Virus record (IMG/VR): IMGVR_UViG_3300037459_000226
Span: 1 to 64,000 of that record
Reading direction: 5' to 3' (one strand)
DNA from: a virus
DNA length: 64,000 nt
Both the position numbers and the translations under genes were made by a program. A model generated the notes under the pieces. That model was not told where the DNA came from. It did not search any database and worked only from the letters and a program-made list of their open reading frames with translations. Below are positions 1-25,580 of this stretch, in pieces. Every line of letters begins with the position of its first letter. Position 1 is the stretch's first letter.

Positions 1-1572
1 GGCCCGCTTCATCTCGGTACACAAGTTGGGACATCGCTCAACCACGACCAGCAGGATTGGCAAACCATTTTCAGGTCGGATCTCAATCCAGCGACGAAGC
101 GCAAGTTCCCGACCCTTAATGTCGTCGCTGCCGTTCATAAACATCGAGCCGCGAACCTCGCATCGAAGTCCACGTTCGCTCAGCTCCACCTCGTACTGGC
201 GGCGAGGCAAGACCCCACTCGCCTGTTCGCGGAGGTTTGCACCGTGGGCGTCGATGATGAAATCCTGAAAGGCGTCGTCCCCGACGGCTGGGGCAACTGC
301 GTCCCCCCATTTACGCGCCGTGCAGTTGGGGATGTACAACTCTTTGTAGATCACGACGAAGTTGCCGAACGACGGTGGCGGCCTCGCGGCGAACAGTGTC
401 CCCGCCATCTTGGATCCGGGGTCAAACGCGAAGTAGCGGCACCAATCCGCAGGCGGCACGCCCTTCAATTCCGTGATCACCTTTTGCACGTTGTGACGCA
501 CCTTCATCCCGCGCGCCTCATCTTTGTCCTGCTGGCTCGTCAGGTTCACGATGGCCGAGTGCACATTCCTGTCGAAGTCCCCATACGCCCGAAAGCTGTC
601 GGTGGTGATCTGGCCCAACGCTCGCTTGCGGTAGACGTCTTCTCCGGCCGATCGCCAGATCCGCTCATTCTCCTCGATCGACTTCTGGGGCAGGTAAATG
701 TTGTCGTACATCGTTGCCGAGACCAAGACCGTGCGGGCCTGATACTCCGGATCGTCGGCCGCTTTCTGCATCTCGTCTTCGCCGCGCTCGATCATGTTGA
801 CGATGTCTTCCGTGCGGGAGTGCGGCATCGCGTTCCAGCGAATGAGACCCTCCCGCATCATCGTGCGCGCGACCGCCTCTTCGTACCAACCGCCTTTCGC
901 AACGTCTTCGTCGATCCCGTAAAGGTCTGCCTCGAACCCCTGGGCGTGGCCGGGATCACCCTCACTGTTGAGAGCGTACAGCACCCAGCCCGACTTCATC
1001 GTGACTCGCGAGAAAATGTCTTCGCCGCGCTTTTCATACGCCGGCTTGCCTGCCATTAAACGCTCCGGGATGATGGGACCGGCCGGCTTGGCCCTTTCCT
1101 TCCACCCCGGATACTTGTCGCCGTGGAGGCCCATCCTGACCTCGTCCGGCTCCCATGCGCGGAAAGTTCGCCAAGCATTCGTCTGTTGGTCACGGATGAT
1201 CTTGAAGGCGCCCGGCAGAAACAGATACCGGTAGATCACGCGACCAATGTGTTTCTGGCCGTAGCAAAGACACGCCGCGACGCCGTTACGACGGGGGTAC
1301 TTTCCGTAGGGATCTGTTCCGGTGAGGGCGCGGCCGAACTCGATGAACTCACTCAAGCTGCCACCGACCTGATTACCCTTCTGAAACATGCACTCTTTGG
1401 CGGTGCACGAGTGAAAGGTCTCCTGATACGGCAGAGGCTCGTACAGTCGGAGCGCGTCCATCTCCCGCTCGTCGCTCTCGCGGCACATCGCGAGGTACTC
1501 ATCAATCAGATGAGTGCTCAGCCACGAGTCCCGATCCAGTTCTTCGGGGAGGTCTTCAAGATGCTCGAACAT
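1..1572 (-). CDS. terL: Terminase large subunit (3' end runs off the window; absent from the ORF track)
   Basis: Hand translation from ATG 1572 is open to position 1. Motifs: Q motif YEPLPYQETFH, deviant Walker A KGNQVGGS, Walker B ADLYGIDED, coupling motif WNAMP, nuclease motif DWCRYFAFDPG, CPNL near the C-terminus. Confidence 0.92.
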   Translation of the reverse strand, partial: MFEHLEDLPEELDRDSWLSTHLIDEYLAMCRESDEREMDALRLYEPLPYQETFHSCTAKECMFQKGNQVGGSLSEFIEFGRALTGTDPYGKYPRRNGVAACLCYGQKHIGRVIYRYLFLPGAFKIIRDQQTNAWRTFRAWEPDEVRMGLHGDKYPGWKERAKPAGPIIPERLMAGKPAYEKRGEDIFSRVTMKSGWVLYALNSEGDPGHAQGFEADLYGIDEDVAKGGWYEEAVARTMMREGLIRWNAMPHSRTEDIVNMIERGEDEMQKAADDPEYQARTVLVSATMYDNIYLPQKSIEENERIWRSAGEDVYRKRALGQITTDSFRAYGDFDRNVHSAIVNLTSQQDKDEARGMKVRHNVQKVITELKGVPPADWCRYFAFDPGSKMAGTLFAARPPPSFGNFVVIYKELYIPNCTARKWGDAVAPAVGDDAFQDFIIDAHGANLREQASGVLPRRQYEVELSERGLRCEVRGSMFMNGSDDIKGRELALRRWIEIRPENGLPILLVVVERCPNLCTEMKRA

Positions 1573-13698: not shown

Positions 13699-14244
13699 AT
13701 GCCAGACCCACAGCCACTCTCCGAACACCCCAAGGTGCAATTCTTCAAGATCTCACCCGAGGGCTTGGGAACGATCGTCGTCGACCCGAGATACCGGCCC
13801 AACGGCGCCGATGGCCTGCTCGTGACCTGCCCAATCGGTTCGATCGTCAAGCTCCAGTTGGCGCACACGATTCAGCCTGGCACGTCGTTAATCTGGCGAG
13901 GATATGGCATTTGCAGGCGAACGACGCCGCGACTTGTGACACAGCAGCAGTACGATGCCGGCCCTATTGCAAAACCAGAGTCTCCGCTGTACGACGTGAC
14001 GGCCTTGTTCTGGCCCTGTGACCGTCGGCATCACCTCCAGATGACCCTCAATCTGATCACGGGAGTCGAGGTCGTCACGCGGTACGTTCCGCCGGTCGCC
14101 TGCACGGCCTGCGACTGGAACGGTTCTCGGCACCAAGCGAACATCGACCCGTGCAAATCGCCAGCAGAGGACCGGTGTCCGCTCTGCGGCGAGAAAGTCG
14201 TCATCTTTCACCTGTTTCCACCAGGACCAGCGAATGCCGGATAA
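13699..14244 (+). CDS. Hypothetical protein with C-terminal Zn ribbon
   Basis: GGAG RBS; CTAC..CPLC. Confidence 0.6.
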   Translation: MPDPQPLSEHPKVQFFKISPEGLGTIVVDPRYRPNGADGLLVTCPIGSIVKLQLAHTIQPGTSLIWRGYGICRRTTPRLVTQQQYDAGPIAKPESPLYDVTALFWPCDRRHHLQMTLNLITGVEVVTRYVPPVACTACDWNGSRHQANIDPCKSPAEDRCPLCGEKVVIFHLFPPGPANAG

Positions 14245-21951: not shown

Positions 21952-21994
21952 GAGCCGCTACTGGATGCTTTCACTTCAAACAGGGAGAATGATC

Positions 21995-22228
21995 ATGGCG
22001 CGAAAAGAGTACGAACTGACTGACGAGCAGTTGGAATCCATACTGAACCTGAACGCCTCTAAGCCGGTGCCGTATATGGTGTTCGGAGGTCGCGAGCCTC
22101 GGTCGCCCCAGGAAAATGCGAACGCCAGACGGGCTGCGCTCGGAACTGAAATGGGCTTCGACTTTCTTACCGTCCAGCCAGTGCAAGGCAAAGGCCAGAA
22201 GTTCTTCACGGCAGAGGAGTCCGGCTGA
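21995..22228 (+). CDS. Conserved small phage protein
   Basis: ASKPVPYM..G..PRSPQENAN....LG.EMGFD..TV.P. Confidence 0.7.
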   Translation: MARKEYELTDEQLESILNLNASKPVPYMVFGGREPRSPQENANARRAALGTEMGFDFLTVQPVQGKGQKFFTAEESG

Positions 22229-22323
22229 GAGCCGCCAGCCCGCGCGGTCCGTCAACCTGTCCCCAACCGGCGGGCGGACCGTGCCGCTGGATGCTTTTAC
22301 AATTTACTAATCGGAGGTGCGAG

Positions 22324-22662
22324 ATGATTCCACGAGTCGCGGCAATCGACACTCAGTTGGCGGATGTCGACGGCAGGCTGTCGTCGTTGGAGGATCTACA
22401 GCGATCACTCACGAGTGAGCGACGCAAGCTGCTTTCGCAGCAGTTCGTCGAGGTGACCAACGTCACTCTGGCCGACGTCGAGCTGTCCACAGGCGAAGAC
22501 CGGCCATACTTCACCACGTTCGGAGAATTCGGAAAGTGGCTTAAGAAAAACAACATCCAAAGGCGGTACGCCGAGTGGAACACCCTGCTCTATTACACGT
22601 CGGATGCGATGGCGGGACGGATGGGTGAATCGCTTGCGGAGCTGGAAGACGTCCCCGCTTAA
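22324..22662 (+). CDS. Hypothetical protein (paralog of 23081-23416)
   Basis: GGAGG RBS; shared NVT..DVE..WN..Y...D..AGRM...LE.VP. Confidence 0.7.
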   Translation: MIPRVAAIDTQLADVDGRLSSLEDLQRSLTSERRKLLSQQFVEVTNVTLADVELSTGEDRPYFTTFGEFGKWLKKNNIQRRYAEWNTLLYYTSDAMAGRMGESLAELEDVPA

Positions 22663-22712
22663 ACTTCAGCGATGCCGCTGGATGCTTTTACTCGAACGAT
22701 GGGAGAAAGACG

Positions 22713-23084
22713 ATGATGACCGCAGAAGAGAAGCAGTGTGCGTTCAAGGCAGCGTTCGGGAGGCTCGACGAGGAACATCTGGGCAACCTGCTGTTTCACG
22801 CCGAGCAGAAGACGCCGGTCTGCTGTGGAAAAGATGCGTGGCTCTACGCTGACGGTTCAGGCGGGATGTGACCGGCCGCGATGTCGTGCACCCGTGAGGT
22901 GTACATGGATCGCACAGTCGGCGGTCTTCGCACGTGCCCTGAGTGGGAAAGTGCATTTTCCACGCTGATGGGTGCAGCCGGCCACAGCACAATCGCCTAC
23001 TACGTCGCGTTGAAACAGTCCAACGCCGATGAGGTTCGGCAAGCCGTGCTGTCAGTCTGCGATCCAGGTGGAGAAACCAAATGA
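22713..23084 (+). CDS. Candidate selenoprotein: 123 aa read through the in-frame TGA at 22869-71 (alternatively a pseudogene)
   Basis: GGGAG RBS at 22713; frame ...GSGGM-TGA-PAAMSCTREV... continues to 23084; SECIS-like hairpin 22872-22921. Confidence 0.55.
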
Positions 23085-23416
23085 GAACACGGCAGTCAAT
23101 CCAGATTGAGATCACCCACCTGAACATGGAAATCTCACCGCTCATTCGCAAGAGGAGCGTGCTGAAGCGAGAGTTGAATGAGGTCGAGTCTCGCAACTGG
23201 ATCGCGGCGAACGGCGTGACGATTGATCAGGTGGAACCCGAACCCCCGTTTGGAACATGCGGAACCATCTTCGATGCACCGGCGAGGACGGGAAAGCGGT
23301 TCTTGACATGGAACGGTCGTGTGTACTTCACGGCGGACATTGCTGCCGGCAGGATGCCGAGAGAAAACGGTCTGCTGGAGCACGTCCCACAAACAACGGG
23401 AGCACGAGATGCCTAG
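23081..23416 (+). CDS. Hypothetical protein (paralog of 22324-22662)
   Basis: ATGA coupling; shared motifs. Confidence 0.7.
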   Translation: MRTRQSIQIEITHLNMEISPLIRKRSVLKRELNEVESRNWIAANGVTIDQVEPEPPFGTCGTIFDAPARTGKRFLTWNGRVYFTADIAAGRMPRENGLLEHVPQTTGARDA

Positions 23417-23699
23417 CCCGATTTGCATACCGTGCCGATGTGAGATGCGGTGCGAGAAGAACGACCAGTTTGTCAACGACGTGAAGTCCGATGTATTCCC
23501 GTCAACGTTCTGGTCGTCTGATCTGTGGCGTTGCCCGGTCTGCGGCAACATTATCGCGACTGGTTTCGGGAGGGGTCAGATTGCGAAACGCGTCACGCCA
23601 GGCGAGTCGCTCACGTTCGCCCACGACCCATCCCAACTTACCACGTTCGCCGATCAGTTTGAGGAACCAAGCGATGCCAAAGAAGAAAAAACCGAATAA
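23409..23699 (+). CDS. Zn-ribbon hypothetical protein
   Basis: CIPC..M...KN....WSSDLWRCPVCG..I.TGFG; GGGAG RBS. Confidence 0.7.
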   Translation: MPSPICIPCRCEMRCEKNDQFVNDVKSDVFPSTFWSSDLWRCPVCGNIIATGFGRGQIAKRVTPGESLTFAHDPSQLTTFADQFEEPSDAKEEKTE

Positions 23700-24384
23700 G
23701 GTCGTAACCGAACAGCAGCGGGAACAACTCATCGCTGATCGGGTCGCCTGCATCCGCGCGCTGCTCGGGACCGGGGGGACCGTCGCCCGCATCTGCCGCT
23801 GTCTCGGCACGTCGCCGGCAGCGTATCACCGGTTCGTGACACAGCACGCGCCGGACTGGGAGACGTGGAAGGGTGAAGCGACGGCGACGATGCTAAGGCC
23901 CTCTCAATGGCGTGATCTGGAAGCCGGTGACGACCCTCTCAATCCACCCTCGACTGAGCCGACGACGCTGGCCGAGACCACGATTCCCTCGGTCAACCGG
24001 CAACGCGAAGAGGAGTTTGAAGTAGTCGGTTGCCTGGATTGTCACAACTTTATCGGATACGCCGATGTGACAGGCGGGGAACGAGTTCCGACGTTCTACT
24101 GTTCCTCGTGCGGGGCCAAGCGGATCGAAAGCGGGGATGCCGTGTTAGCGCCGGACCACTCGCCGATGCCGCCAGCCGATGGGGGCGAGCCGGTTGTCTA
24201 CATCGATACCATCATTCCCGGAGTCGCTGTAGGGGAGCCGTACGTGGACGGCACGGTTCAGAATCCCCTCCACACCTTCGAAGACGCAAAGAAGCTCGCG
24301 GAGGATGTCGCAAAGCAACAGGCTGGCACATTCCCGCCCGTCGATCCGCCCGAAACAGACGACCGTTCCTCAATCCCATACTGA
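23674..24384 (+). CDS. Protein with N-terminal HTH and a Zn ribbon
   Basis: TVARICRCLGTSPAAYHRFV; CLDC..CSSC. Confidence 0.6.
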   Translation: MPKKKKPNKVVTEQQREQLIADRVACIRALLGTGGTVARICRCLGTSPAAYHRFVTQHAPDWETWKGEATATMLRPSQWRDLEAGDDPLNPPSTEPTTLAETTIPSVNRQREEEFEVVGCLDCHNFIGYADVTGGERVPTFYCSSCGAKRIESGDAVLAPDHSPMPPADGGEPVVYIDTIIPGVAVGEPYVDGTVQNPLHTFEDAKKLAEDVAKQQAGTFPPVDPPETDDRSSIPY

Positions 24385-24398
24385 CGGAGACTGACCGA

Positions 24399-24818
24399 AT
24401 GAATAATCGGCAACGATACGCACTCAGGAAACCGTGTTCGCGAGCACCTGACGTACTACGCGACCGCCGTTATTTTGCATGGCGGGGAAGCTGGTCAACG
24501 ATTCTGAGTGTTAATAAATGACTCAGCTTCTGTAGTGGTATGCCCGTGTGGCACGCCTCAGTCGCTCTCCAATCCCGAAATGGTCCAAGACCAGTCGAAG
24601 CACTCAAACGCCAGCAAATTCACAAGGGGATCAAAATAGCCAGCGCCTTGCTGGTAGGTGTCGGCGGAGATCGAATTGTTTTCACCACGGATCCACCTAG
24701 AGACGCAATCCACGTTCAAAAGCCGCTGACAGTGGAAGAAATTGAGGGTTTACCCGATGGATGGATGCAGATCGCAGCCATAGACGAACGTGGGACGTAC
24801 AGAATTTTAAGGGTGTGA
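24399..24818 (+). CDS. 139-aa ORF interrupted by an in-frame TGA at 24519-21 (readthrough or pseudogene)
   Basis: GGAGA RBS at 24399; ILSVNK-TGA-LSFCSGMPVWHASV is in frame; no RBS before ATG 24540. Confidence 0.45.
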
Positions 24819-25336
24819 TGAGTCGGGAGCCTGAAGCCTCCGAAGCGGGACAAACTATGACCGATACGATCCACAAACCCTGCGACAACTGCCCGTGGAG
24901 AGTCTGTAACCACGGCAAGCGGACCAAATGGGGATTCTACACCAAGTCCAACCTCAAGCGTCTCTGGGGACAAATCCGGAGAGCTGCTCGCGGAGGGATT
25001 GCCCAAAGCTGCCACCCCACCGACCCCAGTCATCCAGACCACAGGGAAGCCGGAGCTAAAACGGGCAGCACACCCGTAGAATGTGCCGGGAGCGTCATCC
25101 TCGTCTACAGGGAACTCCAAAAGCTCAAAGACGCCGCCCCTGGCGACATCGTCGATGGAACCCACATAGACGCCTACCTCGCCCAGAACAAACAGCACGG
25201 ACTCACCAAAAAGGGACTCCTGCACTGGCTCATAGGTCGCCACCAAATGGGCGGAACATTCTTCGGGACAGGCCCCAAGCTCCCAAACGTGGACATCGAC
25301 GAACCCGGCGTCGGAAGAATATGTGACGCACCGTGA
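24818..25336 (+). CDS. Cys/His-rich protein (DUF6283-like)
   Basis: KPCDNCPWR...SCH...ECAG. Confidence 0.65.
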   Translation: MSREPEASEAGQTMTDTIHKPCDNCPWRVCNHGKRTKWGFYTKSNLKRLWGQIRRAARGGIAQSCHPTDPSHPDHREAGAKTGSTPVECAGSVILVYRELQKLKDAAPGDIVDGTHIDAYLAQNKQHGLTKKGLLHWLIGRHQMGGTFFGTGPKLPNVDIDEPGVGRICDAP

Positions 25337-25337
25337 C

Positions 25338-25580
25338 TCAGACCGCGTCGGGCGCCCGCTTGCGACGTGAGTCCGCCACTGCGGGCGCTCGGGCGCGCAG
25401 GCTGTCGGCAACCGCAGGCGCTCGTGCCCGAAGAGAGTCCGCCACTGCCGGGGCGCGAAGAGGACGGTAGGGCACGGGAGGGGCCTCAGTCGCCTCGGTC
25501 TGGAGGCCGAACGTCAGGAACTCCGGAATCGCCCCAGGAGTCCCGATTCCCAAGGTGATGACTTGGTTGATGTCGGCCAT
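25338..25580 (-). CDS. Small virion-region protein with (RAPAVADSLRA)n repeat
   Basis: Coupled to the upstream stop; three degenerate 33-bp units. Confidence 0.65.
   Translation of the reverse strand: MADINQVITLGIGTPGAIPEFLTFGLQTEATEAPPVPYRPLRAPAVADSLRARAPAVADSLRARAPAVADSRRKRAPDAV

Follow-up and report, generated by a model that had tools for sequence, protein, structure and literature searches.

Only a minority of bacteria use selenocysteine (Sec). In the E. coli gene fdhF, the loop of the SECIS hairpin begins 17 nt downstream of the UGA, and SelB is contacted by the G-U of this loop. A conserved G in the apical loop is a feature of bacterial SECIS elements (PMC1976440). Under published working criteria, a new bacterial selenoprotein family should have two or more Cys homologues, a majority (>50%) of TGA/Cys pairs, two or more different TGA sequences and a downstream hairpin with a G in the apical loop (PMC1976440). 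Among viruses, two poxviruses carry selenoproteins, a GPx1-like protein in molluscum contagiosum virus and a GPx4-like protein in fowlpox virus, and these are the only viral selenoprotein cases given in a review of recoding (PMC8310308). The BSepDB paper (2026), which covers 111 bacterial selenoprotein families, does not mention phages or viruses, nor does the deep-Sep paper. A full-text literature search, with incomplete coverage, returned no report of a published phage selenoprotein.

We analysed a phage gene with an in-frame UGA, for which a first-pass annotation, made from the sequence alone, had suggested Sec insertion using the host machinery. The window is the whole stretch of DNA that was studied, i.e., the first 64 kb (64,000 nucleotides) of the 75,541-bp IMG/VR record IMGVR_UViG_3300037459_000226, which has direct terminal repeats of 127 bp and a G+C content of about 59%. 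Judged from the sequences compared below, UGA-53 of 22713-23084 is most probably decoded as Sec, so that the region would be one gene with the second UGA as its normal end. The relevant features of the locus, all on the plus strand, are as follows.

22674 to 22691, plus strand: 18-nt motif GCCGCTGGATGCTTTTAC, described in the first-pass annotation as an early-gene leader; 2 matches within 3 mismatches versus 0.01 expected; putative function
22283 to 22300, plus strand, and near 21955 to 21975, plus strand, the latter with a 3-nt insertion: further copies of GCCGCTGGATGCTTTTAC
22701 to 22705, plus strand: Shine-Dalgarno-like GGGAG, 7 nt upstream of ATG 22713
22713 to 23084, plus strand: read-through gene of 123 codons, UGA-53 among them, and the terminal TGA
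22869 to 22871, plus strand: in-frame UGA, codon 53, the proposed selenocysteine codon; the next base is C (UGA-C)
22872 to 22921, plus strand: extended SECIS-like hairpin within the reading frame; its lower stems in the window are CCGGC/GTCGG and GCGAT/ATCGC
22886 to 22904, plus strand: apical mini-helix GUGCACC [CGUGA] GGUGUAC; loop at 22893-97, starting 21 nt downstream of the UGA, its second and third bases being G-U
23081 to 23416, plus strand: next gene; its ATG overlaps the terminal TGA of 22713-23084, and it is a paralogue of 22324-22662

The layout that had been described at the outset is all found in the sequence: both the GGGAG site and the GCCGCTGGATGCTTTTAC motif precede ATG 22713, the TGA follows 52 codons in the context DGSGGM-U-PAA, and the frame stays open for 70 more codons up to the TGA at 23082-84, which overlaps the ATG at 23081 (ATGA). 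Codon-usage scoring indicates that both halves of 22713-23084 code in one frame. GGAGG-type sites precede the starts of most family members. Motifs of the GCCGCTGGATGCTTTTAC type are located 20-30 nt upstream of the start codons of three consecutive small plus-strand genes, and could represent a promoter, an operator or a processing site of an early operon.

The gene is surrounded by small genes of an early or replication module, and in related contigs the nearby genes are of the replication/recombination type (PD-(D/E)XK nuclease, AAA_24, AAA ATPase and Thg1). In one phage-like groundwater contig (L014), the gene at 809-1528 (plus strand), about 1.5 kb upstream of the family gene, encodes a Thg1-like tRNA-His guanylyltransferase (Pfam E 1e-28). 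The flanking genes 22324-22662 and 23081-23416 are paralogues of each other (27% identity over 105 aa, E 3e-10). A C-terminal Y-x-T-x-D-x-x-A-G-R-M ... L-E-x-V-P pattern is common to both, and neither belongs to a known family.

An exhaustive phmmer search of the read-through translation against 1.84 billion representative proteins yielded about 17 full-length homologues (105-165 aa), aligned over both halves, and 8 proteins of 48-54 aa that stop exactly one residue ahead of the UGA column. Later searches added four Cys forms and one further short form ending at this column. A word-index protein search with the family alignment contributed few extra sequences, and single-protein searches for related loci and for word-index protein relatives gave no matches. 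P0003, P0005 and P0026 were rejected as homologues, being Ig or cadherin repeat proteins with repeat-inflated scores. Database entries split the gene itself into a 52-aa piece (P0035) and a 59-aa piece (P0002).

The state of the UGA column is DNA-verified TGA in 10 loci, and in 9 database proteins the gene call ends exactly there, the stop codon in these being inferred from the protein ends only. Of the 20 full-length homologues that lack the TGA, 15 have Cys, the column lying there within a conserved D-G-x-G-G-x-C-P-A-x-L-A; the remainder are two Trp, one Ser, one Ala and one Leu/gap. Thus the homologues that were to be looked for, with Cys or TGA at this position and similarity on both sides, exist, and the pattern that would point to a simple nonsense mutation, i.e., Trp, Arg or Gly in the column, is limited to the two Trp cases. 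The five homologues with Trp, Ser, Ala or Leu at the column suggest that the residue is not strictly essential. Both Trp forms are P0020 and P0030; the tail of P0020 is long, Trp-rich and hydrophobic, as if a TGA stop had been read under code 4. The family pattern can be written as H29 ... T-P-I/V-C-C-G ... D-G-x-G-G-x-U/C-P-A-x-L/M-A ... V-R-x-A-I. His29, Thr34, Cys38, Gly39, Pro54, Leu100 and Arg109 are invariant or nearly so, and Cys37 and the U/C column are present in most members.

The codon in this column was determined using a degenerate DNA pattern with T-P-I/V-C-C-G and G-x-G-G/A-x-TGN-P as anchors, in which any TGN was permitted. All family members found in IMG/VR have TGA (five pattern matches representing four distinct sequences, plus L030, which has another spacing). 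In metagenome contigs, the same TGN pattern returned TGA in 9 of 12 cases and TGT in 3 of 12. After de-duplication, there are ten distinct TGA loci (the window, WIN; L003, L004, L005, L006, L010, L012, L014, L016 and L030) and two distinct Cys loci. The TGA loci are ~30-50% identical to one another and, as judged by contig names, derive from marine, soil or rhizosphere, and groundwater samples. As a control, a looser pattern was applied; its chance matches in G+C-rich DNA were a mixture of TGG, TGA, TGC and TGT, and otherwise it recovered known members only. The degenerate DNA pattern found the family in none of 185,579 representative prokaryote genomes (GTDB representatives), and the family was likewise not found in cultured-phage records.

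In a maximum-likelihood tree, TGA forms do not separate from Cys forms: they are intermixed, at least two changes are forced by well-supported branches, and the terminal branches have ~1 substitution per site. The intermixed forms together with the long terminal branches indicate that the TGA has been retained for a long time and repeatedly swapped with Cys. In this repeated exchange, the family resembles known selenoprotein families.

The first-pass annotation had described a hairpin with three stems and the loop CGTGA, starting 21 nt after the UGA with G at loop position 2. The minimum free energy fold of 22866-22930 confirms it: CCGGC/GTCGG, GCGAT/ATCGC and GTGCACC/GGTGTAC are paired around the loop CGUGA (-25.6 kcal/mol). 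The energy of the window hairpin is unexceptional at 59% G+C (z = -0.92, with 42 of 200 shuffles folding as well), so the hairpin of this single sequence is no more than expected by chance, and what goes beyond chance is its conservation in relatives. Hairpin energy in the window counts against the selenoprotein reading, and the support for this reading is comparative.

A stem of 4 bp or longer with a 3-5-nt loop, a G in the first two loop bases and a loop start 17-21 nt past the UGA is present in each of the ten TGA loci, which agrees with the initial suggestion of a match to the general bacterial SECIS geometry. The background for such a hairpin is about 0.2 per position in the same contigs, under loose criteria chosen post hoc. 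Empirical p values for a stem of at least the observed length are 0.02 (WIN), 0.025 (L006), 0.025 (L010), 0.056 (L012) and 0.10 (L014), and range from 0.17 to 0.29 in the other five TGA loci, the short stem of which is the WIN core sequence. The statistical weight of the hairpin geometry on its own is modest.

The core CACC-CGUGA-GGUG (22889-22901 in the window) is common to six TGA loci and shows no synonymous variation. In these six loci, the peptide T-R-E/A-V is encoded as ACC CGU GAG/GCG GUG at every synonymous site. Identical codon pairs make up 55 of 55 in the core versus 111 of 246 outside it (Fisher p = 5e-17, the pairs being non-independent). Outside the core, the equally conserved Thr34, Pro, Gly, Ala and Leu have varied codons. 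The codon before the core always has C in the third position in the six loci, though the amino acid is C, F, Y or S, and the constrained bases add up to exactly the CACC[CGUGA]GGUG stem-loop.

The other loci have different hairpins at the same place after the UGA: GCGGCC[UGUAA]GGUCGU in L006, GCUGUC[CGGCG]GACAGC in L010, UCUGC[CGGGC]GCAGA in L014, and a bulged 10-bp stem with the loop GACC in L012. The stem across the TGA loci is thus either invariant or swapped for a different hairpin in a shifted register. No column-wise consensus structure over the 10 loci was returned by RNAalifold on an ungapped 48-nt alignment, and there is no countable compensatory covariation, because the hairpin registers differ between loci. 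No Rfam match was found in 22000-25500. As for the Cys type, L019 (TGT) has at 13704-13760 (plus strand) a hairpin of 10 bp, whose GGUC loop is located 18 nt past the Cys codon, and the second Cys-type locus has no hairpin at the corresponding place. The L019 hairpin indicates that the structure is not exclusive to TGA forms; since L019 is placed amid TGA forms in the tree, its hairpin may be a relic SECIS of a recent Sec-to-Cys change.

AlphaFold2, using the family alignment, predicted for the read-through protein a single compact and mainly helical domain that extends over both halves (pLDDT 90.8, pTM 0.84). The UGA residue is located in the model directly before the N-terminal end of helix 54-59 (U-P-A-x-L/M-A). 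The family has no match in Pfam or PHROGs and no sequence match in the PDB, and Foldseek found no fold relative in the PDB or BFVD at E <= 0.001; the best Z in VIA-align (wide) was 3.8, and the ESM Atlas neighbours were unnamed and uninformative. It is tempting to speculate that the strongly conserved His29 and Cys37-Cys38, together with Sec-53, might form a redox-active or metal/chalcogen-binding centre.

The main rival to Sec decoding is leaky or programmed read-through, in which a near-cognate tRNA (Trp, Cys or Arg) would read UGA-C independently of SelB, the output would be a 52-aa protein with a minor full-length product, and the hairpin would only slow termination. UGA-C is the leakiest termination context; this weak terminator, the Trp found at the column in two homologues and the unexceptional hairpin energy are all compatible with such a mechanism. 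We consider it unlikely, given that the predominant residue in the column is Cys, the specific partner of Sec, and that the single modelled domain needs both halves, so that a mostly 52-aa output would be waste. In addition, the loop sequence (G-U) and its distance from the UGA are kept at synonymous sites, which fits a protein-recognised element better than a roadblock.

Sec decoding also requires that the region past the UGA is translated in the same frame as the region before it. In all 10 TGA loci, the frame is open for 60-95 codons beyond the TGA, and this part is homologous to the C-terminal half of the Cys proteins, with a conserved P-A-x-L/M-A-x-x-R-x-V-P followed by the C-terminal V-R-x-A-I. 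The post-TGA dN/dS is about 0.24 for the pair L003/L005, which is the one unsaturated pair, the remaining pairs being saturated or badly aligned. The two codons directly 3' of the TGA always encode Pro and Ala/Thr, and differ mainly at third positions.

These data bear on a two-gene arrangement, in which a 52-aa protein would be followed, through termination and re-initiation, by a 67-aa protein from ATG 22881, the Cys homologues then being fusions. This arrangement is suggested by the ATG 9 nt past the TGA in the window, by an ATG at the same codon in L010 and L014, and by the two pieces reported by gene callers (P0002 and P0035). The ATG at 22881 is, in fact, the L/M position of the conserved C-P-A-x-L/M-A motif. 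This codon is CTC, CTT or CTG in 6 of the 10 TGA loci, where a start codon is lacking for many codons, and these six loci rule out a general two-gene arrangement. Moreover, ahead of the L/M position, the Pro and Ala codons that follow the TGA are kept as amino acids, there is no ribosome-binding site upstream of 22881, as had been noted initially, and the structure is modelled as a single domain. Altogether, two separate genes are a very improbable explanation, most TGA loci having no start codon near the TGA.

A gene broken by a nonsense mutation in one phage, or an error of sequencing or assembly, could be suspected because a single public sequencing run (DNA, marine-sediment metagenome, probably the source) matches the sequence, and its probability is negligible since the TGA occupies the same codon in ten divergent loci from marine, soil and groundwater samples, the frame past it is intact and under purifying selection, and a separate assembly of the same run agrees. 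It should be noted that the latter, a Logan contig (depth about 14.6) identical to the locus sequence, is built from the same data and gives no independent support; the search of public runs listed no RNA run containing the sequence.

Equally negligible is genome-wide use of TGA as a sense codon (as in codes 4 and 25): other phages do reassign stop codons (PMC9523058), but this is refuted here by the use of TGA as the usual stop of long ORFs, including 22713-23084 itself and the DnaB helicase gene, the product of which aligns with the family profile to within four residues of the stop, and by a genome that has no suppressor tRNA and no tRNA gene at all (ARAGORN with introns produced junk only). 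The genome-wide list of same-frame ORF pairs split by TGA consists mostly of ordinary adjacent genes.

An unusual tRNA-like gene immediately precedes the family gene in one phage lineage (L005, 8938-9008, minus strand; also L007 and L009). In L005, it is labelled tRNA-Leu(UAA) by ARAGORN, has a shortened D-arm and scores 33 bits against the Rfam tRNA model. The tRNA-like matches in G002 and G004 were rejected as suppressor candidates, being an odd tRNA-Leu(UAA) instead.

With Sec decoding as the preferred reading, the source of the machinery has to be considered. Genes for tRNA-Sec, SelA, SelB and SelD are absent from the five phage records searched (the window phage and four related ones); hence, the machinery would be that of the host, and the phage must infect a Sec-using bacterium. 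Relatives of the terminase include one uncultured sequence with 35% identity, and the sole match of the DnaB helicase (34% identical) is in a Victivallis MAG. Cultured-phage records and GTDB representatives contained no cultured relative or prophage copy pointing to the host.

A second gene with an in-frame TGA was found in the same genome.

24399 to 24818, plus strand: second gene with an in-frame TGA, at 24519-24521; hairpin at 24541-24553, UGCC [CGUGU] GGCA, with the loop starting 23 nt past the UGA

Five IMG/VR relatives of this gene (L031-L035), four of which are distinct, all keep the TGA, which is followed by a conserved GMPVWHAS, and have a perfect hairpin past the TGA, one of them with an fdhF-like GGUCU loop. 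There are seven CCCGTGNGG sites genome-wide, and only two are located about 20 nt past a TGA, namely those in 22713-23084 and 24399-24818. Two unrelated genes having nearly the same apical loop (CC-CGUGN-GG) is the expected picture for a single host SelB acting on both. None of the other records searched contains both TGA gene families.

Representing these observations as a mechanism, a ribosome nearing UGA-53 would have available the downstream in-frame hairpin, with the apical CACC[CGUGA]GGUG 21 nt past the UGA. Host SelB with GTP and Sec-tRNA(Sec) would bind this hairpin, following the established bacterial pathway for which E. coli fdhF is the prototype, and would bring in selenocysteine at the UGA, competing with release factor 2. 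We infer the SelB dependence, the actual insertion of selenium and the protein function. The suggestion of Sec insertion through the host machinery is supported by the conserved TGA, its pairing with Cys, the coding through the UGA, the constrained nucleotides of the hairpin and the fact that TGA otherwise ends genes in this genome. The family of 22713-23084 displays every feature named in the working criteria for a new bacterial selenoprotein family (PMC1976440).

In a broader sense, it appears probable, if somewhat less so than the decoding of UGA-53 itself, that phages encode selenoproteins of their own: two unrelated early genes in this genome would be expressed through host SelB, the family of 22713-23084 would be phage-restricted, with a new fold and a His/Cys-Cys/Sec centre, and the early programme would be tied to the Sec trait and the selenium supply of the host. 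If this is true, gene callers systematically split or shorten such phage genes, phages can depend on the host Sec trait, which would be a new host-range marker for uncultured phages, and infection could be influenced by selenium availability. The family is small (123 aa) and confidently modelled; with its natural Sec and Cys variants, it would be convenient for studying why Sec is kept over Cys, and the conserved 13-nt apical element is a compact natural candidate SECIS for testing.

Compared to known systems, the gene is like bacterial genes with a SECIS inside the ORF, such as E. coli fdhF, in that the in-frame UGA is followed by C and by a hairpin directly downstream within the coding sequence. 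Like bacterial selenoprotein genes in general, it has a G-U or G loop 17-21 nt past the UGA, Cys homologues and a second UGA as the stop; unlike them, it is carried by a phage without Sec machinery, SelB binding is putative here, and the protein falls outside the known selenoprotein families. The poxviruses provide another parallel, because a viral selenoprotein there is fully reliant on the host Sec machinery, and the fowlpox SECIS is also in the coding region (PMC8310308). However, poxviruses infect eukaryotes, and their selenoprotein genes are glutathione peroxidase genes captured from cells, with a SECIS of the eukaryotic type, whereas the signal described here is of the bacterial type, and no cellular counterpart of the family was found in Pfam/PHROGs or in the 185,579 representative prokaryote genomes.

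Hypothetical selenoprotein families predicted in metagenomic data, such as OS_HP1 and OS_HP3 in the symbionts of Olavius, were supported by the same TGA/Cys pairing evidence under the same acceptance criteria (PMC1976440). Their genes are located on bacterial chromosomes, in organisms whose selABCD genes are known, whereas the family of 22713-23084 is found only on phage or phage-like contigs. Recoded crAss-like and Lak phages (TAG to Gln, TGA to Trp; PMC9523058) are similar in giving an amino-acid meaning to a stop codon. That recoding is genome-wide or affects late genes and employs suppressor tRNAs (PMC9523058), whereas here it would be site-specific, in a genome in which TGA is the main stop and no tRNA is encoded. 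The mechanism seems to be that of an ordinary fdhF-type bacterial selenoprotein gene, and what seems new is the bacteriophage carrier and a family that is restricted to phages.
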